This document shows, piece after piece, positions 2,312 through 32,119 of a stretch of DNA of 64,000 nucleotides. Where the stretch lies: positions 69,834 to 133,833 of the forward strand of contig CAYOFF010000001.1 in NCBI GenBank assembly GCA_964403415.1, written 5' to 3'. Each line of letters begins with the position of its first letter. The first letter of the stretch is position 1. Position numbers and translations under genes: made by a program. The stretch is from an uncultured Candidatus Peribacteria bacterium. Its GTDB lineage: Bacteria; Patescibacteriota; Gracilibacteria; Absconditabacterales; Absconditicoccaceae. The notes beneath the pieces are model-generated. The model was not told the DNA's origin. It saw nothing but the letters and a program-made list of their open reading frames with translations, and did not search any database.

Positions 2312-5300
2312 GCGTCCCTCATCATTTGTTATTTGCGCTATCGATAATCGTATATGAGATCTGCCCCAGAGACTCTACTGAGAATACTGCGAGATTCCCA
2401 TCAAATGTGTATACATCCTCTCATCCTCTTTGGATTGATCACTTTTTGATTGTTGATGAGACATCGCTAAACAACAATACTACGTCATATCATCCTGTAT
2501 CTCTTTTGATAACTTTGACTTTGTCAGTCATAAGAAAAGGCGGCGTTGTGTCTTCTCAGATAAGAACAATAGGTATTGTCTTGCTATCACTATAGCCCTT
2601 TTCATCTGTCATCATGACTTTGAGCTCATAACTTCCTGGTTTCGTTACTGAGGGAAGCGTTACATTGGTGATATCTACCACTCCTCACTGTTTGTTGTAG
2701 GTGTATGACTTTAGCTCTACATCGTTGAGATATATTTTGACTGACGTAATCTTGAATGGAGACTTGGTTTGATGCCATACAGAGAAGGTTCTTGTCACTT
2801 TTTGTCCTGGCTCTGGCTGAATAATATTGAGGGCAATTTGTCACATTTGAGCTAACGCATTCCTTTCTTCACATTCTTTTTGCGGAGCTTCCAGAAGGAT
2901 CAATATACCCGATCCAAGCAAGGACTGGGCAGCGCCACTTCCCCATCGGTTATTGATGTCTTTTTGGTCGCGTTTGTCTGGGAGCATACTTTCTGGCTTG
3001 ATGATGTATGCGTCTTTGACATCTCACTCCGGTGTCAGTGATCATACTTTTCCATTACACAATGCGTCAACCTTGGTGACTTCCAAACTCGTATCTGCAG
3101 CTGTCGGTAGCGTATTGATGTATCCGAGTGATGTCACCGCAAACGCTAATGGGCTGTCTGCATTGACAAGTTTTCCACTGATTTTTGATATCGTTACAGA
3201 CTTCACTTCTTTCTGCTCTGGAAGCTGGTTAGAAATAAGATTATTTCCCTGAAGTTTTTTGATGAAATTTCTCCACGCAAGATTATTGATCCATCCACCG
3301 TACGCATCTCTTCTCAATGCGCTTCCATCTGTATTTCATCCCCAAAAGACCATCACTGATGAAGGCGTATATCACACGAGCCACCCGTCTCTTGGGAGCT
3401 TCTCTTTGGTTTTTGGATCTACGACATTTGTAGTTCCTGTTTTGGTAGCCATGGTTAGGCCTGGAATCGTGAACTTCTGTATCCACGATGCAGGCAGGTT
3501 TGAGTTATCCGACAAAATTTTCCACAACAAAAATGCTACGCCTGTAGGAATAACTTGCTCTCTTTGTTTCACTTGTTTCTTGTACAAAATCGATCCGTCA
3601 GCAGCCCTTATCTCTAGAATAGGATTAATCTCTGCTGGAGTCCCCATAGCACTTAGGTGCGTGTATGCAGTAACCAACTCATACATAGGAATTTCTGCAG
3701 ATCCGATCGCTAACGGATACCCATAATGATCTGGGCTCATATCTAGAGATACTATTCCTAGCTTTTGGAGAAATTGCTTGATAGGACCTTCTCCTCCTGC
3801 CATCATCAGCATCTTGATAGCAGGAATATTTCTACTTCCAGCTAGCGCAAGCTTGATTGGCATCAGTCCCTTGAATGTTCCATCAGCGTTATTTGGTTTG
3901 TCTTTACCGATAGTAAAGGCGAGATCATAAATAGGACTGTCTATAGTCAATGGATTTTTCATAAATCCGAGCGAATAGACGAATGGCTTGATGCTTGATC
4001 ATGGTTGTCTTTTGGATTGGATAATATCTACCTGTCCGTCAATTTCTTCGTTGTAGTAGTCTCTCGACCCCACATAGGCCATCACATCACCATTGAGACT
4101 ATTGACGTACATCATCGCAGCATTGTTGGACTTGTATTGGCTAGCTACTGCCTGATTTTCATTTATACTTTCTTCTGCCATTTTTTGGATATTGTAGTCT
4201 AGGGTGGTAGTAATCGTTAGCCCCCCTTTACGTAGAAGCTCTGCATCGTACTTCTCTTCAAGTAATTTTGTTACCCAAAAAACAAAATGAGGAGCTTTGA
4301 TCTCTTGTCTTGCACGTGCGAATGTGAAATTGAGCCCCCTGAGAAAGTTCTTCTTAAACTCGCTTTCGGTAATATATCACTCCTCATACATTCTTGCAAG
4401 GACAATATCCTTTCTTCCTGGCGTATAACTGACCTGGTACGTCTGCCCTTGGTAGGTCAGTGAGAAGTCTAGCAGTCCTTCCATAAATGAAATAATAGCA
4501 TCATCGCTCTTTTTGAAGGCGAGCTTCGCATTGTCCATATTTTGCTGTACTCTTTCTAGGATGAGTTGGTTGAGTTCTGTTGTCAGCTCTACTGGTGTCG
4601 TCTCGTCGTCTACAATATTTATTTTTCCCATTACAGCACCGTTGTTGGTATACGGGTCGTATCTTGATGGTGCCTGTGGAATACCTGCCAAGATCGCCGC
4701 TTGTAGGACATCTAGTTTATCGGCACCTACTCCAAAGTATGTCAGTGATGCGACCTGCACACCATATGAGTTATTGCCCAAAAAGATATAATTCGCATAC
4801 ATCTCCAAGATTTTTTCTTTTACTTTTTTGTCTAGTTCGTCACTTGAAAGATCAGACTGAGCGTTTTTGATCTCACGTTTGATATAAGAGTTAAGTTTGA
4901 TAGCCAAAATAATCTCTTTTACCTTTCTTTCGACTTTTTTCTCAGGAGTAAGCATAAGATTTTTGATGAGCTGCTGCGTGATTGTGGACCCTCAGATTGT
5001 TTTCCCCTGAGTAACGTCCGTAATAGCAGCCCTCAGCGTACCTTTTCGGTCCACACCAGGATTTGTCCAAAATCTCTGATCTTCTGTTGCTACCAGCGCA
5101 TTTACAAAGTACGGTGAGATTTTTTCGTATGGAATATACTCTCTATGCTCTTCAAAAAGCCTATACAGCGGTTCTCCGTTTTTGTCGGCTATGACGGTTG
5201 CCTGACTAAAACTATACTTCTCGATGTTTGAGATATTTGGCAGATCGCGTAGAATTGCAAAATAGAATCGTAGCACAGCAATAAGCACGGGGACACCCAC

Positions 5301-5492
5301 TGCCGTCAATCCTACCCAAAACAAAATACCACCCATCCCAAAAAGCGTCTCTCTCCCATGATATGCGTGCATCATGGTCCCACGAAACGTTCTTCTTTTG
5401 CCTTTTTTGGTCGCTTCAAATAGAGAAATTACGCGATCCCAGGTTGTCTGAAACCATTGTCAGAACGTATTTTTCTTGTACTGATGCATCAT
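2289..5492 (-). CDS. Class A penicillin-binding protein (PBP1A-type glycosyltransferase/transpeptidase) with a roughly 250-aa beta-rich C-terminal extension
   Basis: All minus-strand fragments (5375, 4955, 4181, 3962, 3317) share one frame, and I checked the gaps for TAA/TAG. Motifs: ATEDQRFW, I[G]GSTITQQLIKN, RQP[G]SSIKP (SxxK), a TM helix near the N-terminus. TAG stop at 2291-2289 overlaps the methyltransferase 3' end by 23 bp. Confidence 0.9.
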
Positions 5493-5532
5493 TATTTACC
5501 AGAAAACAAAATATGTATCTACGCCCCCGCGC

Positions 5533-7206
5533 CTATCTTTTGGGTGGATAAATAAACCCTCATACACCGCTATCTGAAACCGATATCCAACGTGTCGAAT
5601 GAATACCTCTTCACTTGTAGTTCATCTCCTCCAGGCGTATGTTATCTCCATCTACTGCTGACACAATCGCTACGTGGCCTAGACCTCCCCATCATTTCCT
5701 AAACACAGCTATAGATCAGACTGTTGGTTTCTTGCCAGTCGCATATCATGCTGCTGCCGCATTGTCTAACCACCTTCCACCATTACCTCTCCATGCTACT
5801 GAGTGTCCTGCTTTCCACCATACATATGCTGCATAATAGGTACAATTACCTCGAGCAAACCCTTGTCCGCCAAATCCATCTTTTTTTGGATTAACATATG
5901 CAAACTGCACAATTCATCATTTCTTCTCTGCTGTCTCTTTTTCCTTTTGTTGTTTCTGCCATGTTGCTTCATCTACACAGACATGACCCTCCTCTCTGTA
6001 TCCTTCTTTACATGTTCGTGCACGTGTAGGCGTAGGATCTACACAAAAGGCATTTTCTGGCTTCTGCACACATTTTCCTTGATATGGACACGCATTGTCT
6101 GGACATGTCGATTTGTTCTCTTTTTTGGTTTCTTTTGAAGGAGTTGCCGCTTCTTTTGAGACTGATACGGGTTTCTTTACAGCATCTTGGGTAGGACTCT
6201 TCGCAACTACTACTCCCGCATTTGCAGGCTGTGATACTGTTTTCACTTGTGCAATTTTAGCCGGTTCTTTCGTTGGCTCTGGTTTTGCTGGAACTTGCGC
6301 AGTCTTTGCTGCTTCTTTTTCTTTTGCAGGCTGTGCCACAGACTTTAGTAGAGGTTGCTCCTCTTTCTTTTCTCCTGCTTTGATAACCTCCTGTCCTTGT
6401 GCCTGCTGATAAACTACCTGCTGCTGAACCTCTTTTTGCTCTGGCGCAACTACATCTTGGTCTTGGACAGGCTCTTGATTTTGTGTATCGCTATCTACTG
6501 CTGATGATTCGCTACTATCCACTTGTACAGGTTCATCGGTATGTTGTGTGTCGCCATCTACCACTGCTGCTACATATGAGTCTGCATACTCATCCTCTGA
6601 TGGTGGTAAGTCCATAGGGACATATACTTCTTTGTACTCTTTCTTCTTGATGAGTCACTTTGCCTCCGCCTCCCCTTGATTGAGGTCCAAGAAAAGCTCC
6701 TGGCCTACCTCGAGCTTGGTGCTAGCATCAATGATATAGTTCAAGCTCATAACATCCTCGAGATCGAGGTGATACTCTGCTGCGAATGCCTCTATTGTTT
6801 GTGGTTTCTCTACTTCGTAGACAATACCATCATCATATGCGATTTTTAGTGTTTGTCCTGCCAACAAGACATCTGTGGGAGAGAGTCCGTTAGCCTTTCG
6901 CAAGGCACGAACCGTGGTTCAAAATTCTTTTGCTACGTCCTCTACAGTATCACCTTTTTTGACCTTGTAGCTAACAATAGGCGTCGATGCGTCTCCTAGC
7001 AACTGCTCAAATGCAATACCTTTTGCTCACTGATCTCCTAAGAGGTTTGCATATGCAGGCTGCACAAATCATTGTTTTTGAACCTCTTTCTGCACGTACG
7101 CAAACTGCTGCGGTACCAGTACAAAGAAAAGGAACACAAACAACGATGTCAGACTACCTCGATCTACCAATGTTTTTGATAATGCGCGCGTAGGCGAATG
7201 TAACAT
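5533..7206 (-). CDS. Secreted or anchored peptidoglycan hydrolase: N-terminal TM helix, LysM repeats, acidic and Lys/Pro/Ala-rich linker, Cys-rich module, C-terminal CHAP domain
   Basis: One frame from ATG 7206-7204 to TAG 5535-5533. LysM: YKVKKGDTVEDVAKEF[G]TTVRALRKANGL. CHAP: RGNCTYYAAYVWW...GNGGRW...[G]SIAVFRK[G]WGGLGHVAIV. The longer track ORF start at 7254 would overlap tRNA-Ser, so the internal ATG is used. Confidence 0.85.
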
Positions 7207-7226
7207 ATACCAAAAAAGAACTAAAC

Positions 7227-7316
7227 TGGCGGAGAGAGTGGGATTTGAACCCACGGACCCCTTGCAGGGTCAACGGTTTTCAAGACCGCCGCATTAAACC
7301 GCTCTGCCATCTCTCC
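7227..7316 (-). tRNA. tRNA-Ser (anticodon TGA)
   Basis: Minus strand reads GGAGAGATGGCAGAGCGG...CTTGAAAAC...GGTTCAAATCCCACTCTCTCCGCCA. It has a 7-bp acceptor stem, a long variable arm, a T-loop and an encoded CCA. Confidence 0.9.
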
Positions 7317-7518
7317 CCGACCATACTCTATCATTCTATAGAGTGCGCACTTTCACATTTTTTGAAAAAGTACAAGATCCGTTATAACAATGTCGACTTT
7401 TTATTCAAGAACAATAACCCACCCCCTATTTTCCCCTGTACAGACTCTCAAAAAACAGTATATATGCATCAATATTGGCTCTCGTAGTCACTTCTACCAT
7501 TATCTATCATAATAGAAC

Positions 7519-8019
7519 ATGAAAGACGCGCAAATACAGGACCTTATGGCTCGCTATCCGCTCCAGCAATGAGCTCATAATCCTATACTTAGGAGCGTGT
7601 GTACGCCTGTCTGACCGATTACCAAAGAACTCCGCCAATTTGGGAAGGACTTGCTGGCACTGATGCGGGCATACGATGGCGTATGACTTGCTGCACCACA
7701 GGTTGGCAAGACCATCAGGATGGCTGCCATCACTCAGCGAGATACAACCAAAAAAGAACGAGAGCTTATTCTCGAGGACGTAATGATCAACCCCGTAGTC
7801 TTGTCATCAAGCGACACACGTGTACGCGACAAAGAGTGATGCCTTTCACTACCAGGGATAGAATGAGAAGTCGAAAGATCTAAGCAGATAACGGTCAAGT
7901 ATACCAATCTCCAGGGCAAAGATATTATCAAAAAAATTTCTGGGTATAACGCCAGGATTATCTTACATGAGATCGATCATTTAGATTGAGTACTCTTTAT
8001 AGATAAGTTGGCTACGTAG
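7519..8019 (+). CDS. def: Peptide deformylase
   Basis: All three signature motifs are present, each using TGA for Gly: GV[G]LAAPQVG, E[G]CLSLPG, HEIDHLD[G]. TAG stop at 8017-8019. Confidence 0.95.
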
Positions 8020-8023
8020 CAGA

Positions 8024-8731
8024 CTATCCCTTCATAAGCTCTGTACAGTACAACTGAGCTGCCTGTACTGGACATGGTCTCTCTCCGAGGCCGTCTTTGT
8101 ATTTTTTCTCACAGACACGAGCCGATATTTGGAGACGATTAGGATCTACTACACTCGGCTCCACATAAAAACTCAGAATCTCCCACACTTGCTTAGGGTT
8201 TACATCGTCCTTGTAGGTGTATGCATATTTCACACAGACCACATCCTTGCCAGATGGACTCATGATACCAAAATCCTTGATAGACAAAAATTCATATCAT
8301 TTTCTGAGCTTTTTGTATTCTTTGGAGAAGCTTGCTACTGAATTTTCGTTGGTTGGCGTACACTGAGTGGGAGACAAATAGCTACATGCTGATGCATAAC
8401 TTCACTGTGAAAGTGCTGCAAAATATGCTTTAACGACATCCATCGTTACTGTTGTTCATTTTTCTACTATGACTTTGTCATCGGGGGTGATTTGGTTTTG
8501 AGTATTTGAGGATTTTTGCTGTGTTCATGTTGATCATGAGGCATTGTTGTTTGTGCCTTGATTTTGTTGCGTTCATTGTTGTCCTGCTCCTGCTGACTGT
8601 CCTGATGTTTGTTCTGATCATCCTGAGTTTCGACCCGTAAGCACATTTCACTTACTCAACAATGCCACACCTAAGATGGTTATAATCATTACCAAGATTG
8701 CCACTTGTACGACAGATCATTCTCTATCCAT
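8024..8731 (-). CDS. Hypothetical membrane-anchored or secreted protein (N-terminal TM helix, Gln/Gly/Ser/Thr-rich linker, Cys-containing C-terminal domain)
   Basis: ATG at 8731-8729, one frame with TGA=Gly, TAG at 8026-8024. Begins MDRE[G]SVVQVAILVMIITILGVALLSK. No family recognised. Confidence 0.6.
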
Positions 8732-8830
8732 GTCCAAAAAAAGGTATAAATATGATGAAGTATTTTTGCAGGTATAAATCTACTTGTACCCATACAGTTT
8801 AGACGAACAACTTCAAGGGACATGTTTATT

Positions 8831-11800
8831 CTACTCTCATGGTTTGCTCACTGTAGATTCATCCACTATTGTGTAATTTAGGTCATGATAGTCCTCCTTT
8901 TTGTGCTCCACTCATACCGCGTCTGGCACAGCGGAGTCCATCTTCACATATCCTTGTCATTTTAGATCGCCTAATGTTGTTTGAATAATAACGGGCTCTT
9001 TATAGTCTCTTCAATACGTTCTTATCAATGCAAAATTATCTGTATAAATTCGGTACGACACATATCATTTATGTCCCCTATTGTCCTCCTGCTTTTGATT
9101 GAGTAATCATATGGTACTTTTTTCGAGTATTCTGTACATTTTTATATCGTTGGGCATATATGTGTTGATAATACAATTTATCACATGATCATGGATGATT
9201 GCATTGCTTGCGTTATAGTTTCCATACTTGTTTTTGATGGATGCAACAACTCACTGGATGACTGGCAAACTTAGCATATCATTTAGTACTCCTAGAAAAT
9301 TTTTTCATTCGGCATGTGTTTGCAGCTTCTCCGCAGGAATAGACGACATGTATGTATCAATAATTCCTTGTATTTTTGGCACATCGGAAATTGGCACCCC
9401 CTCCAACATACGATTCATTTCCTCGTATGCCATTTTGTCTATATTTTTGCTTTCACGTTTTAGATTAATTTCCCCATCAATTGGCGTTATTTTTAATGTC
9501 GCACCATCGTACTGCAGTCTAAAGTGTTCATATGCCACTCCTGCCGTTCTTCCAAATAATGAGCCTATTTCTCCATCCGTATCAGACCCTACTACAATAT
9601 CTGTTCATGGCTCGATTGTCGCCTCACCGTATGGACCTTTTATCACCAGGTCTCTATCATCTTTTTCGATTGTGAATGTATCTTCTCATACTCACAATAC
9701 GAGAGGAGTCTCTAGGTCTCTAGCATCATATCATTTTACCGGGGTCTCTGAATCCACACCATTTTCTGGATTTTCTTGACCATCTGATTCTCTTCGGTCA
9801 CCTCACTTTGCAGCATCTTTATGTTCTCCAGCATCCTTATCTACAAACACGTATCCATAGTCATAGTTGTCGTTCTTTTGTGCATATCACAGCTCATATA
9901 ATTTATTCCACAGTTTTTTTCCTCATGGACCCAGTGCCGGCGAAGGAATCAGTTGTATTCACCTTCTCTGCAACTCCTTTCATAGTTGTATATATGCCAA
10001 GACTCCTACTCATTTTGGCTCATCAGGTGCTTTTTCTACATCTATCACAAAAGCTGACGTAGGCGGATTGTTTAAGAATAGTTCAAATTTTTTGAACTTA
10101 ACTTCCTTTCCGTCATATTTTACTTTTACTTCATAGCGTTTTGTCCCATACTCTGTATCTACCTCATTTGCTGGCATCTCTACTAGTTCTACTGCTACCT
10201 CTTCGATATTCAAACTTTCTGGCATCTCGTTTTTGGCAGCACCATCTTTTCCTATATTCTCTCACCCGTCTTCATCTTTTCCTCTATTCAAAAATCCAAA
10301 AATTCATTTATCTCCAAGCATCTTTATTTCTTCATTAGTGAAGCATCTACTTCCATCCGGTTCTGTAGCCTCCATCATAATACGAGTTTTAGTAAGCTTG
10401 ACCGCCTGCCGATACATCATGACAGGATTCCCTTTCACGTCCAACACGGGCGTATCATCAGGATTTTTTACTGCTTCTTCTGTCCCATATCACCGCATAT
10501 GCGCCTCCCGTATTGCGTTCTTTTTGGCTTCAGTTAGTTTAAATTTTTTGTTTGTTTTCCTGAGTTCTTTTTCAGCCTCCTTCCAGACTCTGGCCTTTTC
10601 CTTTCTTACCTCCAACGACAAATCTAGTGTAATTCACTTTTTTTTGATTTTCTTGTTCTCCGTTCTTAGCATCTCATCCCTAATTAGACGATACTCAACC
10701 CCTGTAAGTTTTGATGATGAGACGAACGTCACCGCGCGCATCTTTATTTCGGACCATTTTTGCCATTCTTTTTGTAATTTCTCCAATTTCTTGTTGTATT
10801 TTATTAGACTACTCTCCATCTCTCTTATGCGTTTTTTTCCGTCTTCCGTATCCGATGAGGTATTTTGTATTTCCTCAATCGCGTTTTCTATTGCTCTTAT
10901 CCACGATTTTATTTCCTGTCTCTTTTCATCTATCTTGGCGATTGTTAATTTTATTTGCGCAATAACTTTTTCCATGTCCTGCATATTACGATCGACTTTT
11001 GCCCTGAGTGAAAATTCTGTTTCTAGTTGCTTATTAAATTTTTTAATTTTATCTTTTTTTCGCCTTTCTTCATACTTTTTGAGTTTCTCTCTACGGGCTT
11101 TTTGCTTCTCTGGCAACTCATGCTCTTCAGTCACCTGTATATTCTCGAGCGTCACTTTCACCCTTACTAAGACATAACAAAAATATTCCAAAACATCTTT
11201 CATCAGACTCCTCAATCCTTTTTCATGCGCACTCATCATGTCCCATGAGTGGAAAAATAATCACCAAATATTTATTCTCAACTTGGCAATTCATCACGTA
11301 TTTTTCAGTTCGTCTGAGAACTTATACGTATTCCATCGAGACTCTGTCATCTTCTTACTCAGATCAATTCCAGTGATAATTGCCTGACAAAATGCAATCA
11401 TTGCATCTATCCCGTCTGTTATACTCTTTGCTGTAACAAGATCTGTTACTGCAAATTTTGCTTGCAGTGAGATATCTTTCGCTTTTTGGAGTTGCTTGAT
11501 AAATGATTTGAGATATCTTACGAGAGCGCTTTTTTGTTTCTCGGATGTTGGCTCCTCCTGAATCTCAGCTGCCAGAGCATCAGCATCTGCTGCCACCTGT
11601 TGCGTCTCTGTAAGCAAATTATTTAGTTGCACTTCTCAGTCATTTACTGCAACTTCCGTGGTCGCTGTTTGGTCAGTTACGGTCTGATCAGTTACCTCAG
11701 TTATTGTTGTTGGTTGCACTCATGTTTCTGTTGTTGATGCATCATCATTTGTTGTTGGCTTAACATCGGCTGTAGTTGTACCAGTGGTTCCTGCAGCTTC

Positions 11801-14761
11801 CGCCCCCGAGGCTTCTGCTCCAGCAACCCCTGTCGCATCCGCATCAATAATAGGGACACTAGGCACCCCCGGACTATTTGCCGCTCCGCAGATTTTGTAT
11901 TCCAATAATTGTCTCACTATAAATGGATTGTTGATTACACGGAGAAGATTACGTCACTTAAATGCATTGAGTTCAGATTCGCTTGTTATTCTTTCTGTTC
12001 ATGGATATGTCGCTGGTGTTCCATCAGGATATACTGCGCGATGTTGTTCATCATTCCAGGAGAGCAGGTGCATTTGATGAATCATATCTGCTTGTTCAGG
12101 TGTCAGATTTCTGCAAAATTCTCGATCGATATGGTCGTATGATTCATCATATCAACTCAATGCAAACAACCTATCGTTAAGGTCTTTGAAATATGCTTGG
12201 TATATATCTACAATTGCGCGCCTATATTTATCGGACATTAGACTTGCTGTAAATTTTGCGACCACTCTATCTTTCTGCTCCTTCAGACGCGTCATCCATT
12301 CGGACAATCAGAGGGCGTTTCTTTTCGTCTTACGTTCGGCAGCAGTTTTTTCTACGTCCTGCTGTTCTCATACCTCGCTTTCTCCTGCATGTTCTTTTCA
12401 TGTTGGAACAGGATCCGCTTGCGCCTCCATATTTGTATTCCCATTTCCTTGTGCATTGTTTATTTCATCCCTCAATTGCTTCAGCGCCTCTACATCTACT
12501 CCTGCTGGCGGCTTCACCAACATCTCATCAATCTGTTTGGTATATTGCGCACGCATTTCTGGCACAGCCGCTATTTGTCTTTTGAGATTTTTTTTCTCGG
12601 TCTGCGTCATATTTCATGTGTCTATTTTCCCTTGTTGGTACGAACCGTGACCTGATACCACTCCTGTCGTCAGCGCGGTAATGATTGCCGTAGAACCAAG
12701 GTCAGCCCGGCTCATATTCACGTCGAGATTGATATCTGCCCCACTATTCACCATATAATTGAACACGCTTGTGAATAATCATTGCGTCTCTTCTTGTATC
12801 ACTTCGTCCTTCAGCTCATGGGCTAGATTTTTTCATGCAGCAAGCGCTGTCATTGCAAACAACGCCAGTTTTGTCATGATACGCGCCTTCCCTTCCTTTC
12901 ACACTAGACTCAAGAGCACGCCACTAAACTTTCCCGTAACCACGTCATTTGGAGACAGCAATTCGAGTCCTGCAGATCATGCGCTCGAGAATAGCGAGTA
13001 TGCGACACTCTCCATATCAGTGAGTCATTGTGCTTTTGCGCTCAGGTAGTTGGTTCATGCCTGCTGTATCATGGCATTGGAGAACAAGCCTATTCTACTT
13101 GCGTTCTGCACGAGCACTCATCACGTTTTTGTGGTGAGTTTTAGAAGTCCTGCTCATGCTTTTTCGGCACCTCGTGCTCGTGCTTCTCATCATCAGAGCA
13201 AAGCTATCATCTGCGATATTCCTTGTGCAAGCTGATTCACTGTATTATCAAAGCGCATATTGAGCTTCCCATCCTTGACTAGTGGTTCACTCATCTCTGA
13301 TGCCAATCCTATTTTTCCAAACGCGTCCCATGACTCTTTGAGACGTAGCGTAGATCACATCGCTTTATCATCCTTGAAAAATGAGATAATCATTGCACCA
13401 AGCGCACTTCCTGTCCCGACAATCGCATCATAAAATCCATTTCGAAGCCCTGCTCATGCATTCAACACCGTATACACGCCGCTACCAAATGTTTTGCGGA
13501 TCCATGTATATGATGCATCTATTTCCTGCTGTTTTTTGAGTTGTTCTGCTTGCTTCAATTTTCTATCCAGCACGATAGCACGGAATGGGCCATCTTTGTT
13601 TGTAGGATCTGCAATATATCTATAGAGCGCGGTAATATCTTGATATTTTTTGTTGAGTCACGACTCTTCCATTCTTGTGAGCACCTTGCCCACACGACCT
13701 GCATCAGCAAGCGATATCTGATTCATCGCATAAAATCCATCACACGTTGCTGTATACTTTTCAATCTCTGCCTGGACAGCACTGATCTTATACTTTCTCT
13801 CATATGTTTCCTGTAACCCATTCATCTGACGATTGAACGACAAAAATCATTTAATCATCAGTGGTCATGCTGCCTTCTGGAGTTTTTGAATTTCTTCGCT
13901 ACAGTATCTTACGTAGTTGTTCGCATTCATTCGGCTTTGAAGCGCTGACTCTGAGTCAAGTCAGACATAACCATCCTCTAGCACTTTTTGTGCTTCAGCA
14001 TAGAGTCATGGATCGAATCCAGGGACTGCTGCCACCTTTGCTTCGTATGTTTTGTAGTAGTCGAGATGCTGCGAGTAAATACCTGGTTTATCGTATCCTG
14101 TTTTCTTAGCGATATCTGTACTCTTCTTGCAGTAATCAGCCCATATTTTCATTTTCTTATCGATATCAGGATGATGACGATTCGTGATATTTTCGATCAT
14201 CCTGGCCGCCGTACGATACTTGAAGGCAAACTCATTAAACTCCCTGAGATCCTTGAATCCCATCTCCTTTGCGATCGATTCTTCCTCTGGCTGTAGAAGT
14301 CAAAAATACGTATCCAGCGCCGCCATTGCGACTTCATAATCTACGTAGTCACGCTGTACCAGCTGATCCCTATCCGCATTGTCACGCTTTGCTTTTGCTT
14401 CTATCTCAGCGTATTGCTTGGGATAGTTCTTCTTAAATCGATCTACGAGTTTGGCGTGTCCTATATTTTCGTAATTCTCTTTGAGCTGAAGGGGAGGCGC
14501 AATAAATAGTCTTTGTAGATTGTATGTTTCCACAAACCTAACTACCGCGGGATTTCTTTGTGCCCAAAGTGTCTGTAATGACGTTTTTAGCGATTCTTCG
14601 AGAGCGTGCTGATATGAGGGCTCCTTGAGATACAACGCCATAGTTTCCAAAAAATCTTTTTTCTCAAAATTACCCGCCTTGATCGACTTCTCCAGTTCTC
14701 AGGTATCGACCTGTATGTCTTTGTTGTAGTCCAGTTGCCCGGTGTACTGCTCGAGTCCCAT
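8831..14761 (-). CDS. Giant orphan protein, 1976 aa. Layout: helical N-terminal third, Gly/Ala-rich hydrophobic block, Thr/Ala linker, long Lys/Glu coiled coils, C-terminal globular region.
   Basis: All nine minus-strand track fragments from 9305 to 14650 share one frame. I walked every gap codon by codon and only TGA interrupts, from ATG 14761-14759 to TAG 8833-8831. Hydrophobic block examples: GTGSALGAMIISFF, IMTKLALFAMTALAA[G], LGSTAIITALTTGVVSG. Coiled coil: EKQKARREKLKKYEERRKKDKIKKFNKQLE. No catalytic motif recognised. Confidence 0.8.
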
Positions 14762-14763
14762 GG

Positions 14764-15054
14764 TTATATCTGAGCAAGTAAATCATCGAGCTCCGCATCT
14801 ACTCATCACTTCTCTGTCTTTTCTGTATCACGAATTTTACGCAGATACGTTGCTGCTTTTTCTTTTTTGGTCGCTGAGAGTTTATTTTTTGCTGATATAT
14901 CCGCCTGCGTAAGCATCTTGAGAATGCCATTACTGAGCTCCTGTATTGCATCCTCATCTTCAAGGCTCTGCACAAGCTCCGACAGGGCTCACGCCATGTC
15001 TCGGTACGGTTTCAATTTCTCTAGAAGAGCTACAACAAGCTGTTTCTTCTCCAT
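14764..15054 (-). CDS. Small helical/coiled-coil protein (96 aa) immediately upstream of the giant ORF, with a 2-nt gap
   Basis: ATG 15054-15052, TAA 14766-14764. MEKKQLVVALLEKLKPYRDMA[G]ALSELVQSLEDEDAIQEL... No family recognised. Confidence 0.55.
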
Positions 15055-15318
15055 ATCCTCTCACCTATAAAGCACAACTCCCCGCATTGTAAGTATACGG
15101 GTATTGCTGATGATAGGAAAATAGAGGGCTTTTGTGTCTTTTGTTGTATTGACATCTAGCTCTGTTTCGTTCTAGTTTCTCTATACGCGCCTACGCCGTC
15201 CCTCCGCATGTCATCAAAAAAGTGACGGCTTTGTCTTTGCTCTTACGCTTTATTTTCTCTTGCCAAGAAGTATTGACATCTTGCCCATTCTATTATTTTT
15301 ACGTTCTAATACGTATAG

Positions 15319-15666
15319 ATGGAAACATCAACACGAAAAAATGACTCTACAGAGAAGATTCCTGTGGGATATCGCGCTTTTTGAGTACTAGTTAGTGCTA
15401 CCAGAACGCGCGACTTGGTTGCGAGAACTAAAGAGGAGATAATAGCCCAGTTATTCGGACATTGTGCAGACCCAGAAGACATTGACTCTTTTGTTAGGCC
15501 CGTACGAACTGAAGATCAGTACAAAAGAGATCTCGCCGATGCAGAGAGGTGAAATAAGCAAAGAGACCAGACCGACGGCGCGTGATTTAACAGGAAAGCT
15601 GGCGATGTTGAGGCAAAAAATATATTTAGCAGTCAGATGGATGCCCACAGATGAATTATAGACTAA
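15319..15666 (+). CDS. Hypothetical protein (115 aa), divergent from the giant-ORF operon
   Basis: ATG 15319, TAA 15664-15666, four in-frame TGA. METSTRKNDSTEKIPVGYRAF[G]VLVSATRTRDLVARTKEEIIAQLF... A hairpin follows the gene. Confidence 0.45.
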
Positions 15667-15685
15667 GCAAAATCATCAAAAAAGA

Positions 15686-15717
15686 CGAGGCTAACTGCGC
15701 CTCGCCTTCGGATTTTT
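15686..15717. terminator. Hairpin between convergent genes (possible bidirectional intrinsic terminator)
   Basis: CGAGGC-TAACTGC-GCCTCG: a 6-bp stem followed by CCTTCGGATTTTT. Confidence 0.45.
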
Positions 15718-15743
15718 GGAATCTACAAGAAAGAAATATACCC

Positions 15744-16235
15744 TTACGCTAGTGCATCTGCTAATTCAGCCTTTGCTGACTCCCTCCTCATCATCGCACT
15801 TCCATGTCTCAGCATACTAGGATATAGGTAATCCAGCAACAGCCAAATATTCCCATCTCATGGGTTTATATCAGGGACAACGTCATATACTCTTTGGATT
15901 CTTGACGGTTCTTGCGTTTTTGATGGTTTATCTAGTTCTAGTTTTATCACTAATGCCTGTATTATCGCCTGACTTCTCGGGTATGTTTTGAGATAGTCTA
16001 CCTGCTGCCTGAAGCCATCTAAGCTAAACACCATCCTTTCATCCATTTCATTGAGCATCACCTCAAATAGCGTAATGTCTGCATCATGTATAGATAGATC
16101 GTCTCCAGCTGCTTGTTCTGGAGAGATTTTTCGTCATTTTAGCCCATGGAGCTTTTCTAGCACGCGCGCATAGTATTCAGGCTGTCGTTTTACCTGTCTG
16201 GCAGAAGGATTTTCTTGTGGAGCTGTTGAAACCAT
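15744..16235 (-). CDS. Hypothetical protein (163 aa)
   Basis: ATG 16235-16233, TAA 15746-15744. Extends track ORF 15858-16061 through TGA on both sides. No motif recognised. Confidence 0.5.
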
Positions 16236-16370
16236 AGATATTGTGTGTAGAGAATAAATACACCTTTCTTTATTATACATTCTTTCGCCTATATGTCAAT
16301 TTGTTTTATGTACCAAAAAACCTCGCATTGCTACGAGGTTCTTATGATAATAAGCGATCTTACTTCAAAC

Positions 16371-16447
16371 TGGAGCAGATGACGAGACTCGAACTCGCGG
16401 CCTGTTCCTTGGCAAGGAACCGCTCTAGCCAACTGAGCTACATCTGC
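16371..16447 (-). tRNA. tRNA-Gly (anticodon GCC)
   Basis: Minus strand reads GCAGATGTAGCTCAGTTGGCTAGAGCGGTTCCTTGCCAAGGAACAGGCCGCGAGTTCGAGTCTCGTCATCTGCTCCA. Full cloverleaf with encoded CCA. Confidence 0.9.
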
Positions 16448-16575
16448 ATAGCACCCACACAAATGAGTTCCCATTTGCATGAGCACGTCGTGCACTATAG
16501 GTAAGTGACTCAACTTTTCAAGGAAAGATCTTTTGTGTCTCAGAAAGCACTCTGTCTGCCAGGAGAAGTGGATAT

Positions 16576-16983
16576 CTATACTTCAATGATCTCTACGTTT
16601 TTTTGCGCCCTTTCTTCGCGAACGCTCTCTGGAATGAGCGATTTTGTTGCTCATGCTATTACGAGCATCAACCCAAAGACCTTCATAATATCACGCACAA
16701 ATACATACCTATCAGGCGTATCTACCAGGTAGTAATGCGCACAAAGCACCAATACAATACCAAATAACGGCACTGCCCACCTATTGTCTGGCAAAAGCTG
16801 TGGGACAAACACCGCCACCAAGAAGAAGGCGAATACCAACCAAACACCTACAAATGCGAGCATATTGTATGCCTCAAACGCAGGTCGCACCAATACCGCA
16901 TCATTGATGTAAAGCCAGACAACATACGCAATACATGCTACCAAAAATGCTATCCATACGCTACGAAATATGTGTGTTTTCAT
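16576..16983 (-). CDS. Small integral membrane protein (135 aa, about 4 TM helices)
   Basis: Track ORF 16651-16983 extended through one TGA to TAG 16578-16576. Hydrophobic helices: VWIAFLVACIAYVVWLY, LAFVGVWLVFAFFLVAVFV, LFGIVLVLCAHYYLV. Confidence 0.6.
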
Positions 16984-17079: not shown

Positions 17080-18900
17080 TTACATCTGATCGAGCGTCTC
17101 TACACCCAACAACGTGAGTCCCTGATGGAGCACATGCGCTACTGCCGATACTAAGCGAAGACGTAATGTCTTTTGGTGTTCTTGCTCTGCTTGTAATATC
17201 ATCACCTGTTGGTAGTAAGCATTGAAGAGATGTGCTATGTCGAGAAGATATCTTACCACAAGATATGGCTGATAACGCTCTGCTGCTTGCTGGATAACAT
17301 CTGGGAATTTGCTTAGTACCACCAAAATTTCTCTTCATCATGCGCCTATATCTTCTGCTGTAATAGTATTTTCAGTATCTACGACCACACCTACAGCAGA
17401 CCCTGCCGAACTAATGTTTTTGAAGTTAGGATCTCCCCCACCTTGTACTCATGATTTTTTGAGCATACTCATACAACGGGCATACGTGTACTGTACATAC
17501 GGTCATGTTTCTCACTCAAAGCTCAGTGAGGTTTGTTTGTCGAACACAAAATTTTTGCTTGCCTCGTATTTGAGGATAAAGAACTTTATTGCCGCCATTG
17601 CGATAGCTTCTGCTCTGTGGCGCAGCTCTTTCTCTTCCATATCCGCATATCTCTCGCGAAGAACTTCTCATGCACTCTCATGCATATCATCTGCGAGATT
17701 ATCCGCATCTACCACATTTCATGTCCTGCTTTTCATCTTGCCGTCTGGCAGACTAATCATCCCATAACTCATATGATAACATTTGGGCGCGAAGGAAAAT
17801 CAAAGGCGGTTGAAGACCTCGAACAGCACCTGAAAATGATACTCTTGCTCGTTTGCGACCACATATACCATACGATCCATCTTGTACTCTTCGTATCTCA
17901 GTTGCGCGAGCGCTATATCCTGTGTTACATAAATAGAAGTCCCATCGGCTCTGAGCATTACCTTGGTGCCCAGTCACACATCTTCGAGATCACATACAAT
18001 ATTTCATTTTTCGTCTTTGGTGAACAGCCCTTTTTCATATCGTTTGTAGACTACATCTTTGCCATGCTCGTAGTGTTCACTTTCGAAGTACTGTTTGTCC
18101 ATGGTTACACCATATCTTTTGTAGGTAGTTGCAAATCCCGCTATCGCTCGAGCATTCATTTGCTCCCGTAGCGCTCTGATCTCTAAGTCACCATCTTCCC
18201 ATTTCTTGAGCATCTCTTGTATTTCTTGCTCTGCGTCGGGATGCTCTTGTGCATATTGGTCATAACGCACATAGTAGTCACCCACAAAATGATCTGACTT
18301 CTTGGTGGGCTGCTGTCCTGCTCCAAACTTCTGGTAAGCGAGCATTGATTTACAGATATGGACACCACGATCATTGACGACTTCTGTCCTTATCGCCTTG
18401 TATCAGGCATGCAATAATAGGCTGCACAAAGCGTTTCCTAGGAGCATATTTCTCACGTGTCCTAGATGTAATGGTTTATTGGTATTTGGACTTGGAGACT
18501 CCACCAGAATAATCTCTTTCTTGGGAGATCCAGCTCCGTACGTATCTTTTTTTGTAAAAATTTCTTCTACGACGTCTTGTATACATCGTTGTACACTAGC
18601 TGATATATTGACGTATGGTCCTAGTGCTACAACCTGAGCAACACTGCCTCCTCACACGTTTTTTTCGCTACTCGTCCCTATTTTTGCTGTTATCTTAGCG
18701 GTCGCCGCTGCACTTATTTCTTGTGCTATCTGAGCGGGCGATTTTCCCAAAGTTTTGGCAAGCTGAAAACAAGGATACGCTAGATCTCCGTGCTGTTTGT
18801 GCATAGGTTCTTCTAGGAGAGCGCTTTCTATGGGGATCTCAAGCTCTTTTCATACCTCTTCCAGGAGCATTGCTGCTTCCTTGCGAAACACTTCAAACAT
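17080..18900 (-). CDS. argS: Arginine--tRNA ligase
   Basis: One frame from ATG 18900-18898 to TAA 17082-17080; all gaps checked. HIGH motif PNTNKPLHLGHVRN, mid region MLAYQKFG...DYYVRY, and a typical C-terminus ...LLGVETLDQM ending in Met. Confidence 0.9.
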
Positions 18901-20127: not shown

Positions 20128-23100
20128 TTAGGTTGATTCTTCTCCTCACTCGCTTCATCCTCACTCTAGCTGTTTCTGCCTTCTTGCTTTAATTGCGAAG
20201 AGCAGGATCAGTGCTGCGAATGCGACTGCTAGGATACCGACGACTCGGAGCGTTCGCTTCAAGATCGTTCCTAGTATGCTTCATCATGAAGACGAGCTTG
20301 TGGATGTCTTTTCTTCTATGGGTTGTTCATCTTCTGCCTTAATTGTTCCACAACTCTTGGAGGGGAGGTCATAATAGACGATGATATCACATAGTCTTGC
20401 GGTAATAGCAGCAATATCTACTTCGTCTAGATCACCCTTTTCTTGCGCTGTCTTTGCTACCTGCAAGATCTTATCAAGGATTTTTTTCCTATCTTCCTTT
20501 CATCACGTCCCTTGATAGCTGTCAAACTCCTGGAAATAACTTATTACCTGTTCTTTCGCTTCGTTTTTGAACCAAAGTATAATGTCTTTCTTGGCAGTAT
20601 CATATTCGTTTCCTCACAGCGCAGCGACTACGGAGCCATCCGAAAGTTCTATCAAAATACGCTCCAATTCTGCTTTATCATCTGCCGTAACCGCAGATGG
20701 ATTTTTTTGCAACACATCATATAGTTGCAGGATTGTTGAGTTGGTTTGCTCCTTGTCACCGAGCCCATCTCTTAGTGTTATTAGCAAGGCTTTGTAGTAG
20801 GTTGATACCTCATCCAATTGCTTGCCTTCTATGTGCTGTATAAGTGCATCTATCTTTTCGTACATTACTTTTTGCTCACCACTTAGCTGCAAACTTACAT
20901 CCAAAAACTTGATCGTAAGATCTTTTGCTGCTACTTCACCACCGCTTGCGTAGTAGATTCTAGCTGTCGTGTACTCGTGCCTTGGCGCAAGGTATGATAG
21001 CGTCACTAGCGTATTACAGTCCTCATCGTGATCGTAGAGAATCTCAGTATCACCATTCCCGTCCTGAGTAATATCGCTATCTATATAACAATTTCCAGAT
21101 CATACGTAAGACACATACATCGTAATCGTATTTTTTAGGGCGTTTCCAACTGCTATTTCATAGCCCTCTCACTGCACTTGTGCCGATGGGACACTCATAA
21201 TACCAACAGTATTTGGCGTAATATTTCCTGTTCATCATACGGTTATTGTGGTTTTTTCTGCCTTTTGGTTTCCATATTTATCCATTGCAAAGAATCTCAA
21301 AACATACTCTCCTGGCACAGGATACGTAAACATAAATGGCGCTGTTCCTGTCATCAAAAATCCTGTATTCGTCGTACATTTCCTAATATCCAAACAGATT
21401 TCGCTCGTTTCTACCTCTCCAAATAATATTGGATAGAAGAGTACTTTGTCTCCATATGTGCTATACAAGAGCTTGGGCTCTAGCTTTTGTCTTACATAAA
21501 TTGCTTCTGTAAATGCCGTACCTGCACGCTCCCTATAGAAGACTTTTACTTTTGGTCTGTATCATCTTTTGTCTGGATTTGGCTTGGTGTAGGTGTATTT
21601 CACTGTATCTTTGTTGGTCGTAAGATCATATATGCCGTCTCCATCAAAATCGTATTTGAAGTATCTCGTTGTCTCAAAATCTGGCTTCTTAGAAAGCACA
21701 CTAGAAACGGTTGTAAATGTAATTTCTTCCCCTACCTGCACGTTTGATGCACTTGCTTTGAGCGATACAATAGGAACATCTGGGCTATTATTATCTGGAG
21801 GGAAGGAAACAATAGGGCCTTTCCCAAAGTACTCACGACTATCCACTTCTCCACCATCGCTATCCAAAATTCTTACCCCAAATTCAAAATCCGTTCATCC
21901 CTGTCTGGGAACCGAAAATACTGCATATGGGATTGATGCTGGCGTATACTTGATATCAAGGAGGTTTTCTGGATCTCCTGCCTTGGAGTAGTACCAGATA
22001 AATTTATTGATAAATCCGTCTGGATCACGTACATTTGATGCCGCTACTTTTACGGTCACAGGATCTACTATTTTGGTGGAGAGCACGTTTTGTGGGGACT
22101 GTGATGATGAAGATGTCGATGCCGTAGGCAGCGTACCTATGCCCATACTTGACTGAGAGTATCATGCTTTATCATTGTACTGTGGGAATGTAATTGTTAC
22201 GTTATTTATTGTAGGCAGGGCATTTCTCACATCAAATCGTATCTTCTTCACGTCTGTTTTAGCCACCAATGGATCTTCTACAAAGAGATCTACGTACTGA
22301 CATCCCATCTCTGAAAAACTTGTCATTAGCATCTTTTGTCTTTGTTCTGTTCACTCTTGTGTCTTGAAAACAAAGTTTAGGAGGTCGTTTGGCGCTCATT
22401 TAACGCCACGAGATGATGATGCGTCTATTGTTATTTTTTGGTATCTATCAACGATGTACGCTGGATTTGCTGCCTCACCACAGGTTCCTCTCGGCAATAA
22501 CAAAAGATTATTTGGCTGTAACTTTACCTCATATCACGCTGACGGTTGGTCCTTTTGGCCCACAAAGACGAGCCTTGTAATCTCGTTTTCCTCACCAGAT
22601 GGGGTGATAGTTTTTACCACTACCTTGTATGCTCACGCTACTTTGTACTGGTGAGTAACCTTGTGAGTTGTCGTTTTTTGTGTTGTCCCATCGCCAAATG
22701 ATCGCTCAGCATACGCAACCTGTTTATTTGCGGTTAGCTCCATTCCGACAGTTTCTCACCATACAACCGTCTGTCTTGGAGAGAAACTCAAAAGAGGTCT
22801 CACAGTAGACTCTACGGTGAGATCTTTTTCGATTTGTACTTCTTTTTGAAACTTATCTTTTACAGTAAGTTGTACGTTGTATACACCTTTCTGGTCAAAA
22901 CTCACTATCGCTATTTTCCCATTTTCAAGAAGTTGATCTATTTTTGCTCATTCTCTTGGCGAAAAATTCCATGAATACGTAAGCGTATCGTATCCATTAC
23001 GAACATCCTCATCATAGGATCCTCATGCATCTAGCACAAACTGCGATGGCTGCTTGAGATCACTCATTGGCCTAATCGTAAACGCGGCCAGGGGAGCCGT

Positions 23101-24438
23101 TGAATCTACAAAAAACTGCTGGGCATCATACGTGGTGTTACCTAGTTCATCTGTTACAGTGAGCTTTATGGTATATTCACCTGGTGCTTGAAATGCTCTT
23201 TTGAACTGTTTAACTTCGTACGTATCGATATTTTTTCACTCTGTATTGCTTATTACCCACTGATATTTCTTGATTCTAGAGGTGAGCGAGTAGGATGCGC
23301 TTGCATCAAAACTATAGGTCGATGTGGTATCTCCTTGCTCTGGCGTGTATTTGATAAGTGCTACCGGATCGGAAACAGAGAGATCGTATGTTTCGATAAT
23401 ACGATTTCACTCATTGTCTACCACCTCCAGTGAGATGGTGTAGAGTCCATTACGAGGGAACTCTTGCATAAATTGGTCGGGTTTGCCTGTTCAGGTTCTT
23501 TTGATGATGAATTTTGCGTCATTTTGTGCGGTTACGAGCCATGTATAACTCAGAATCTGCCTTCATCCTACAGGGGTTGTTGAGGTTCCATCAATACGGA
23601 CTCCCTTCATTGCTTCTTGGGTTCCTAATCTCACTGGAGTCGTTTTGGTCGCTAATTTACCGTTGATATAGACCGCAATATTTGCTGATTTCGGCGCAAC
23701 ATTGACTGCAACTGATGTCTCTCCGTCAAATATTCCTTTTGCTGCAGCATTTGCGCTTCTTACGGTAAGATGTACGATGTAGTTTCCTGCTTTTCCAAAT
23801 GTGTGATTTACTACCGGTCACTGGCCAATTGCGACGTCTTTCCCGTCTATATTTTTGTACCATCGGTAGAAGTTATTCTCTGGGATAGTGTCGTTTGAAA
23901 ACGATGCATCTAGGCTGCTTCTTGCATCCAAGGTTACGTTTAGGGGAGCTGGTCCATTGTCAGGAGATGCTTTGACTGAAGGTTTTACGGTATATTCAGT
24001 ATTTATTGATCTAATAATGTCGTTGAGTGGTGTAAAACACTTATCCTTGAATACGACATACTTCCCAGCATCATACTTGGCGGTTAGCTCCTGCACTGTC
24101 AATTTGCACTGTTCGTAGATCACTCTCCATGTTGGCGTCTGAGGGAAACGAGGGAAAAGTCCTCCAAATGCGCTCTGCAACTCTACAAACCTCGCTGGTT
24201 GGGGTTCATTTCACACTCTCACCGCAGCCTGTATCTGTTCAAATGCATTGATCATAGCATCCCACTGCGTTTTTATCTGGTAGTTTGCGTAGTATTCTGC
24301 TGGGACACCGTCTGCCGCAACACTATGTCCTGGCATAAAAAATAGCGAGCTGAGACTCACAAAAGATACGCTAGCATATGCCCATATCACTGCGTGGAGC
24401 ACAACCCTACTGATATTAACCATGTTCTTGTTTCCCAT
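20128..24438 (-). CDS. Giant surface protein (1436 aa): signal peptide, multiple PKD/Ig-like repeats, helical region, C-terminal TM anchor with a basic tail
   Basis: Track fragments 24438, 24180, 22146, 21867, 21468, 21006 and 20466 share one frame; all gaps checked; TAA at 20130-20128. Signal peptide MGNKNMVNISRVVLHAVIWAYASVSFVSLSSLFFMPGHSVAA. PKD-like segments: PLNVTLDARSS..., YSWNF..., FKYDFDGDGIYD. C-terminus VVGILAVAFAALILLFAIKARRQKQ. Confidence 0.85.
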
Positions 24439-24539
24439 CAGGATACCATCTACAGCTGAGTAAAACAGCCCTCAAAAGAGTTCTTTCACCTTACTGTAAA
24501 TAGTACTCACAACACTGCTAGAAAGCAAAAATAACCTAT

Positions 24540-25547
24540 TTATTTGAGGCAGTAGTGGAGGCAACTCGCTACATGAATTTCATCTGGTTGCCATACCCTC
24601 TGATAAGGGATGCGTAGCGTCTGCGCGTAGTGAAATGGCAACAGAAAACCTTGACATTGGCTGCCATATATTTCTTGTAAGACTTCCAAAAATGCTGGAT
24701 TTTTGAGGATTCTACCTATTGCTATGACTGATGTCTTTTCTGGTAAATACTGCCTCATTCGCTTCACTAACTGGCTTATAAAGGCACGATTTGCTTCTCC
24801 GACCGTCTTTTTTGCAAAGGGATGTTCTGCCGGAGAAGTATATAAGAATGCCTCCACACCGTACTCTCTATAGATTTTTTTGAGATGGTGGAGTCCTCGG
24901 TTTACATGCTCAATAGCCCTCCACCATCCTCATTCCAGGCGCATCAGTACTGTCTTTTCATCGTACATTACCAAGAGCACGTAACTTTCCTTATGGAGAT
25001 GATATGTCAAAAACTGGCAGGTGAAATAGCTTCTTGGATACACTTGGAGGCGTTTCACCTGCTGACCTTGACCAGTCACCCCGTTTTTTCACTGGTCTTT
25101 TCCTGGATCATATTCCTGGTGCTGATGCGCCCTAAGAGCATATGAGAGTTCTGGTTGGAGCATATATATCTGTAGATCAAACTGCAGATGGCCAGTCTTT
25201 CCTAGGAGATATTTTTGGGGCTGGCCATTCACGCGTCCATGAGCAATCTCATGATGCACGTATCGCGAGTCCTGATGATGATAGGCCTTGATGTACGAAA
25301 GCTTTTCTTGGACGATTCCTTTGAGATCATGCACCGTAAATGGCGTATGCGTCTGTAATGAGACCGAAAAACAAAAATATGAAAAGCCTTCCTCACCCAA
25401 AAGCAGGATATCTTCATAGATATTAGCATGTTTACAGAACGTTTCTAGAGTCTCGTCTAGCGATGTGTACCACGTTGTCGTAGCGCACTGATCAGCATCG
25501 CACGTGTAGATTTTCCAACGTCCCGAACAATCATACAAGATACGCAT
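24540..25547 (-). CDS. Hypothetical protein (335 aa). An actin-fold (PilM/FtsA-like) ATPase is suspected.
   Basis: Fragments 25089-25547 and 24540-24857 are one frame joined by two TGA. The segment YVLLVMYDEKTVLMRLE[G]GWWRAIEHVNRGLHHL...SVIAIGRILKNPAFLEVLQEIYG resembles sugar-kinase/actin-fold phosphate motifs. This resemblance is weak. Confidence 0.45.
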
Positions 25548-32000: not shown

Positions 32001-32119
32001 AACTTGATGATGAAACATATTGATCTACCAAGGTAGACATAAACATTTTAAACACGTATGTTCATCTCTATCAGTACCGAAAAAAATCTACAAAAAAAAC
32101 GCCCAGAGGAACCACCTAG
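29039..32119 (+). CDS. Large orphan cytoplasmic protein (1026 aa), no recognised domain
   Basis: Track fragments 29864, 30743, 31298 and 31709 share frame 2. I checked every line from ATG 29039 (alternative 29051) to TAG 32117-32119 and only TGA interrupts. No TM helix or signal peptide was seen. Confidence 0.75.

Follow-up and report, generated by a model that had tools for sequence, protein, structure and literature searches.

Two described kinds of protein come closest, by analogy, to the gene pair analysed here: the polymorphic toxins (Zhang, Aravind et al. 2012, PMC3482391), in which a constant N-terminus is joined to unrelated, exchangeable C-termini, and the polyvalent proteins (Iyer et al. 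2017, PMC5512222), giant multi-part polypeptides for which the ADP-ribosyltransferase (ART) domain ART-PolyVal is family-defining. The pair consists of a gene for a protein of 1976 aa (the giant) and, directly upstream, a small gene for a protein of 96 aa. It is located in a stretch of 64,000 nucleotides (the window) from an uncultured Candidatus Peribacteria bacterium (assembly GCA_964403415.1, contig CAYOFF010000001.1, positions 69,834 to 133,833). A related pair, in which the large protein carries an ART domain in its C-terminal half, was found in a second genome. The 96-aa gene and the giant are tentatively read, with a probability a little short of even, as an accessory effector cassette of code-25 bacteria that belong to the candidate phyla radiation (CPR), composed of a new N-terminal module, an adaptor and an exchangeable payload.

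With the polymorphic toxins the cassette would share a constant N-terminus combined with an unrelated C-terminus (seen in two members), a small accessory gene and a patchy distribution, and the ART of the relative belongs to the ART-PolyVal clade, which has been grouped with Tox-ART-HYD2 of the polymorphic toxins (Iyer et al. 2017, PMC5512222). Unlike those toxins, the giant of the window has no trafficking domain (LXG, RHS, PAAR, filamentous haemagglutinin and others), signal peptide or recognised toxin domain, no immunity gene lies downstream and no secretion system is in view. The likeness to the polyvalent proteins lies in the giant, multi-part polypeptide and in the ART-PolyVal domain of the homologue. 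However, this is the one catalogued polyvalent domain in the homologue and the giant of the window has none; the locus is chromosomal, and genes for virions or a type IV secretion system (T4SS) were found neither in the scans of the window nor in the gene lists of the homologue's locus (L004) and of locus L005. Moreover, the N-terminal module of 780 aa and the small partner are absent from PMC5512222 and match no Pfam model. What is claimed for the cassette is that it works like the modular conflict effectors, not that it is a member of a known family.

Other systems resemble the giant in part. Phage tape measure proteins are alike in their great length, their mostly helical character and their Gly/Ala-rich, weakly hydrophobic stretches, but the giant has no PHROG or Pfam match, no tail genes nearby, no homologue on phage or viral contigs and a host-like codon usage. 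In type VIIb secretion systems, one or more small helical Lap genes lie directly upstream of the gene for an LXG toxin, a large protein with a helical N-terminal targeting region. The order of a small helical gene and a large protein with a helical N-terminus recalls this arrangement, as a resemblance and not an established membership; no LXG or WXG100 match in Pfam was obtained for the giant or the 96-aa protein, and no component of a type VII secretion system was seen in the window. The giant surface proteins of Vampirococcus lugosii, for which a role in interaction with prey has been proposed, are predicted to be membrane-localised and contain the adhesion/interaction domains PKD, integrin, fibronectin and WD40 (PMC8080830). 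They come from the same broad lineage and lifestyle context, whereas the giant of the window has no export signal, transmembrane (TM) helix or adhesion domain.

The giant reads as one gene on the minus strand that contains TGA 55 times in frame and is free of TAA and TAG up to its stop codon. An earlier interpretation made from the nucleotide letters only (the sequence-only reading) had proposed such a gene, and in this it was correct; its count of nine fragments was not, since the 55 internal TGA codons divide the gene into 56 fragments under table 11. The remaining two minus-strand frames of the same region contain 63 and 91 TAA/TAG codons. A chance origin of the frame was ruled out because TAA or TAG is expected with a probability of ~0.045 per random codon, while 1976 codons are free of them. 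Dense coding appears in the window (GC 40.7%) only when TGA is read as sense. In the deformylase beside the giant, the invariant glycines of the motifs GxGLAAPQ, EGCLS and HEIDHLDG are written as TGA, as are those of GGSTITQQ and RQPGSSIKP in the nearby PBP1A. When the giant was aligned to its homologue, 35 columns contained TGA, including 7 TGA-TGA pairs, 10 TGA-GGN pairs and 0 TGA-TGG pairs. TGA encodes glycine, not tryptophan, in this genome (code 25).

The gene was further compared with that of a syntenic sister strain (JGI metagenome contig Ga0138256_10017098, L001), which shows 88-98% nucleotide identity. For the first 656 codons, counted from the upstream ATG 14806, a dN of 0.008 and a dS of 0.135 were obtained (dN/dS 0.06), and all 20 of the 20 comparable TGA codons were kept. 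The giant was also called as 1976 aa on ENA ERZ15185866 NODE_1, which represents the same genome (99.995% identical to the window), and the start at ATG 14761 agrees with the N-terminus of the homologue. The composition of the giant (GC 41.5%, GC at third codon positions (GC3) 38.8%, TGA making up 38% of the glycine codons) is like that of its neighbours and host-like; the gene is native to the code-25 lineage and no recent import from a donor with the standard code. The giant is a real gene under purifying selection.

The homologue was reached by walking outward from the neighbouring arginyl-tRNA synthetase (ArgRS). It is located on contig JBBQVK010000001.1 of GCA_038211735.1, labelled 'MAG: Candidatus Absconditabacterales bacterium' (MAG, metagenome-assembled genome), the ArgRS of which is 52% identical to that of the window. 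Directly upstream of this ArgRS lie a gene of 91 aa and one of 1568 aa, with a 1-nt overlap of stop and ATG; the larger gene contains TGA in frame 50 times and neither TAA nor TAG. By BLASTP, aa 8-783 of the giant aligned to aa 6-783 of this protein with 31% identity (E 1e-101), and tblastn between the two gave E-values of 7e-70 to 7e-81. The identity was highest (43-47%) at aa 471-530 and 556-625, within the small-residue-rich block of the module. Past residue ~783 the two proteins could not be aligned. In its C-terminal half the 1568-aa protein matches Pfam ART-PolyVal at aa 1243-1428, with an E-value of 3.6e-15 that passes the curated cutoff. Its phage matches are confined to this ART region and involve giant phage proteins (tblastn down to 1e-13), one of them annotated as 'DarB-like antirestriction protein'; PHROG profiles 1664 and 2900 positions long were also matched by the region.

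The small genes are related as well. Over the first 30 aa the 96-aa protein and the small protein of the second genome are 50% identical (pairwise E 2e-7), and both N-termini contain the motif LxKLKPYRDMA. This match supports the start of the 96-aa gene at ATG 15054, which is preceded by GAGAGGA. The 96-aa helical gene ends 2 nt upstream of the giant, as had been proposed from the letters: its TAA is followed by 'CC' and then by the ATG of the giant. In the sister strain the 96-aa protein is 91.7% identical, and no family match was found for it in the Pfam, PHROGs, NCBIfam and PADLOC scans. As judged from these alignments the giant is not an orphan, as had been supposed, and a second Absconditabacterales genome has counterparts of both its N-terminal 780 aa and the small partner. 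The statement that nothing matches a described system holds for direct matches in the profile libraries.

The orphan look of the giant has a technical side. Scans of Pfam, PHROGs, NCBIfam and PADLOC gave no family for the whole giant, and for eight segments of it no family in the profile libraries was found even at E<=10. Searches of PDB sequences and PDB profiles gave no credible match. By tblastn no match was obtained in 50,697 phage records, 72,556 plasmid records or IMG/VR, and the giant was not found in the GTDB representative genomes. A metagenome scan with the giant returned the sister strain only, and an alignment-based scan of genomes returned only the genome of the 1568-aa homologue. 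Nothing was returned when the whole giant or aa 1-771 was used directly as query in homology searches; these are blind to the giant because a fragment of 87 aa represents its 90% cluster and the copy on file was translated with table 4. With aa 22-153, the longest usable conserved fragment free of TGA, an exhaustive phmmer search found only a same-species fragment with 93% identity. Public protein collections translate this genome with table 4, with tryptophan at every TGA, and several relatives of its ArgRS (e.g. P0011, P0012, P0021) are stored with HLWHVRN instead of HLGHVRN. The lesson for similar cases is that wrong-code translations together with a fragment as cluster representative can hide a full-length giant protein and mimic an orphan.

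The features of the giant, of its small partner and of two further genes are listed in Table 1. The peptide segments quoted in the sequence-only reading, its Thr/Ala linker and its Lys/Glu heptad region were all present, and the architecture given there is correct in broad outline. The proposed glycine-zipper-like hydrophobic core stood only in so far as it is rich in small residues. Between aa ~431 and 710 the sum of G, A, S and T reaches 35-44% and the charge is low, but GxxxGxxxG motifs are entirely lacking in the giant. The best 19-residue windows of this block reached Kyte-Doolittle values of 1.1-1.4 and Wimley-White octanol values of -0.1 to +2 kcal/mol, while the TM helices of p135 and p235 in the same window, taken as controls, gave values of -9 to -15 kcal/mol. 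The block is real as a compositional feature and stays below TM thresholds, although a conditional insertion into membranes may occur. No segment attains TM hydrophobicity, so the suggested membrane-inserting or pore-forming function found no backing; nor did the suggested resemblance to tape measures, for which no PHROG, Pfam or phage match was obtained. These two readings are the least supported. A crude heptad score flagged aa 1085-1119 and 1236-1339. Walker A, HExxH, CxxC and LPXTG motifs were not found in the giant. AlphaFold2 predictions were made on the variant with tryptophan at TGA and with no alignment; they gave all helices for aa 1-771 with an uninformative mean predicted local distance difference test score (pLDDT) of 38.7, and a mixed alpha/beta structure for aa 1501-1976 with a pLDDT of 43.2, which is unusable.

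Table 1. Coordinates of the cassette, the parts of the giant protein and two species-specific genes in the window
Feature	Position	Strand	Remarks
Giant gene	8831..14761	-	1976 codons + TAG stop (8831-8833), 55 TGA as Gly
Conserved N-terminal module, aa 1-783	12413..14761	-	common to the 1568-aa protein of GCA_038211735.1
Small-residue-rich, weakly hydrophobic block, aa 431-710	12632..13471	-	best-conserved part of the N-terminal module
Lineage-specific C-terminal half, aa 784-1976	8834..12412	-	unrelated to the C-terminal half of the homologue
Thr/Ala linker, aa ~970-1040	11642-11854	-	from composition
Lys/Glu heptad region, aa ~1236-1339	10745-11056	-	from heptad heuristic
Mixed alpha/beta tail, aa 1441-1976	8834-10441	-	
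Small partner gene, 96 aa	14764..15054	-	helical, 3 TGA as Gly; ATG 15054, TAA stop
p115	15319-15666	+	species-specific, found in L001 and L002 only; no credible family match
p194	15744-16328	-	species-specific, found in L001 and L002 only; no credible family match

Among ten ArgRS neighbourhoods examined, the cassette of small gene and giant was present in two lineages. When the two giants and their partners were compared by tblastn with every locus retrieved, matches appeared only in the species of the window and in L004/L005. In locus L006, with an ArgRS 73.5% identical to that of the homologue's genome, a Peptidase_S8 gene is followed after 58 bp by ArgRS and no cassette occupies the corresponding site. 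Two relatives of the window organism (L003 and L007) keep PBP1A, LysM/CHAP, the deformylase gene (def) and an orthologue of p235 (the 235-aa gene directly after the giant in the window, 8024-8731); they have no giant, and other genes occupy the space up to ArgRS. No cassette was found in five further recoded or related ArgRS neighbourhoods (L009-L013). The cassette is accessory, being present or absent among related genomes.

The 235-aa protein had been described as membrane-anchored and as a possible third member of a conserved trio. The anchor is there, in the form of one strong N-terminal TM helix, but the partnership is not: p235 is independent of the giant, because its orthologues (44-57% identical, E down to 1e-81) adjoin def in the two relatives without a giant. 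Of the supposed trio, it is the pair of the 96-aa gene and the giant that recurs in the Absconditabacterales genome.

The reading of the pair as an effector cassette is favoured because the N-terminus is constant, the C-termini are unrelated, one member has an ART payload and presence is patchy with a coupled small gene. The first ~780 residues, an all-helical conserved module with a small-residue core, would be the constant part for handling; the module may bind the small partner and serve in targeting, export or docking. The part beyond residue ~783 would be exchangeable payload. In the second genome this payload is an ART of the kind found in giant phage-injected proteins, while in the window it would comprise the Thr/Ala linker, a coiled-coil spacer of ~100-200 residues and then a domain of ~500 residues. 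For the 96-aa protein, a function as adaptor or chaperone of the constant module is favoured over that of a payload-specific antitoxin, because the N-termini of the partners and the non-enzymatic module of the giants are what is common. The giant would act on another cell, which may be a prey, a host or a competitor. In this respect the host-contact role suggested for an episymbiotic or predatory CPR bacterium survives in part, since an interaction or effector role is still the best reading, while the membrane insertion that was part of the suggestion is not. The N-terminal module and the small partner appear to be previously undescribed and, as far as can be judged from the two loci, define a modular, sporadic cassette in code-25 CPR bacteria.

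Several results weigh against the effector reading. The variability of the payload rests on one comparison between two lineages. In the giant of the window no recognisable toxin or enzyme domain was found by the library scans (segments searched to E<=10), and no immunity gene follows either giant, the next gene being p235 here and ArgRS in the second genome. A signal peptide, a TM helix and any domain with a known link to secretion are lacking in the giant (aa 1-790 have no Pfam or NCBIfam match). Among the genes called in the 64-kb window none was recognised as part of a secretion machinery; here the library scans covered positions 5533-16983, the other genes were judged by eye or from precomputed Pfam calls on locus L002, and the large open reading frames (ORFs) at 29039-32119, 41371-43785 and 57613-60012 lay outside the scans. 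Structure prediction was uninformative (pLDDT 39 and 43). In the literature searched, no link turned up between Absconditabacterales and effectors of the ART or polymorphic-toxin type.

A more far-reaching version of the effector reading is doubtful: that the module and the 96-aa partner are a new self-contained route by which a code-25 CPR predator or episymbiont hands large enzymes into its prey. Such a route would then amount to a new family of effector delivery whose payloads can be exchanged and which does not depend on the trafficking domains of known secretion systems. To our knowledge, all CPR bacteria for which killing of the host has been shown are found among the Absconditabacteria and Gracilibacteria, and we know of no effector proteins described for these groups. 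If the effector reading is true, the constant front end with its swappable enzymatic ends would offer a searchable handle on how these bacteria attack or manipulate their partners, and the payloads present in code-25 genomes could be listed with the help of a profile of the front end.

That the frame is no gene at all, but a chance open frame or a pseudogene produced by taking TGA as sense, has nothing but the 55 TGA codons to recommend it; it is already refuted, with a negligible remaining probability, by the genome-wide use of code 25, by the low dN/dS and the complete retention of the comparable TGA codons, and by a homologue at E 1e-101 that itself has 50 in-frame TGA codons and neither TAA nor TAG. 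A rather unlikely explanation is that of a structural or scaffold protein inside the cell, for instance an organiser of the cytoskeleton, the nucleoid or the cell envelope, in which the coiled coil is a spacer, the helical module an assembly domain and no delivery takes place. It agrees with the lack of a signal peptide and TM helix, the N-terminus predicted as all-helical (with low confidence), the heptad region of ~100 residues, the adjoining cell-wall genes PBP1A and LysM-CHAP and the strong purifying selection. A scaffold, however, does not sit well with a sporadic presence among relatives at otherwise syntenic sites, nor with a homologue in which the entire C-terminal half is exchanged for an ART enzyme of a conflict-system clade, and the cell-wall neighbours are kept where the giant is absent.

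The lack of export signals is also compatible with a self-acting conflict module of the toxin-antitoxin (TA) or abortive infection type, in which the giant would serve in the cytoplasm as toxin or sensor-effector, with the 96-aa protein as antitoxin or regulator. A small upstream gene with a coupled junction is the arrangement of type II TA operons, the ART-PolyVal clade is related to the ARTs of TA systems (PMC5512222), and the distribution is accessory. Such a module is nevertheless improbable, as PADLOC matches neither the giant nor its partner, a length of 1568-1976 aa far exceeds that of known TA toxins, and the common N-termini of the partners with the non-enzymatic module of the giants fit an adaptor better than an antitoxin. 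The polyvalent-protein family includes the ART of the homologue, and giant phage proteins match it, as would also be expected if a phage or conjugative element had left the giant in the chromosome as a relic or in domesticated form, either as a polyvalent protein or as a virion protein like a tape measure. A third class of polyvalent-like proteins without a mobile-element context has been described (Iyer et al., PMC5512222), the length and the small-residue-rich helical region are superficially like those of tape measures, and the variable island is bordered by a tRNA-Gly. This origin is held to be similarly improbable: phage or T4SS genes occur neither among the scanned genes (5533-16983) nor in the Pfam calls on L002 (7080-28900), the giant of the window has no PHROG or Pfam match and no tblastn match in phage, plasmid or IMG/VR records, no att-like repeat of the tRNA was seen, composition and TGA usage are host-like, and a dN/dS of 0.06 speaks against decay. 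The effector cassette remains the preferred reading of the locus.

In the homologue's locus (positions 5092-9798) the ART domain is bracketed by two repeats of ~60 aa with the pattern LxLSDxQIQxIxxxH...ELRxxV...LLExGxxG. The two copies scored 82 against each other, compared with 22.8±4.2 for shuffles, and no Pfam model matches the repeat at E<=10. A repeat 'LTxxQxxxIxxAH...' supposedly common to both giants was rejected, as its profile hidden Markov model misses the giant of the window and the pairwise scores are near shuffle level. A suspected degenerate ART or GNAT-like motif in the C-terminus of the window giant found no support in Pfam or in shuffle-controlled alignment.

The identified neighbours of the giant are PBP1A, LysM-CHAP, Def, ArgRS, a PKD protein and UvrB, none of them related to secretion; some small neighbours have no family match. 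The absence of flanking phage, secretion-ATPase and immunity genes asserted in the sequence-only reading was borne out by these identifications. The species-specific stretch of the window extends from tRNA-Gly/p135 to p235, and no att-like repeat of the tRNA-Gly was found at this variable island. Between the cassette and tRNA-Gly/p135/ArgRS lie p115 and p194, which have counterparts of 80% identity in the sister strain and none in the other ArgRS neighbourhoods; p115 has a weak match to phrog_21082 (E 0.002, unknown function). In the intergenic gap between the 96-aa gene and the divergent 115-aa gene, AGATGTCAATAC occurs twice (15146-15160 and 15270-15284), with one mismatch in the flanks. Both copies hold TTGACA on the plus strand and could be promoter or operator elements.

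The gene p135 (16576-16983, minus strand) encodes 135 aa with three strong and one weaker hydrophobic helices. It directly follows ArgRS in every neighbourhood that extends downstream, which is the case for 10 of the 11 distinct ArgRS neighbourhoods. By tblastn no match to p135 was found in L011-L013, although L011 and L013 have an uncharacterised gene of 151-169 aa in that position. The gene is thus linked to ArgRS, encodes a membrane protein and is kept in most relatives. Beyond the same-species copy, the best matches of the window ArgRS (17080-18900, minus strand) show ~44-53% identity and come from mixed sources, comprising TGA-recoded relatives and many proteins labelled Woesearchaeota, Nanoarchaeota or 'archaeon'. 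This suggests an ArgRS type common to CPR and DPANN.

Elsewhere in the window, the ORF at 57613-60012 (plus strand, 799 aa) has a signal-peptide-like start and uses TGA for 44 of its 89 glycine codons (49%); its GC content of 37% and GC3 of 24.5% are below those of its neighbours. A second giant gene (20128-24657, minus strand, 1375-1509 aa depending on the start), which is unrelated to the cassette, encodes PKD-type domains and a C-terminal TM anchor and fits the class of giant adhesion-type surface proteins of Vampirococcus.

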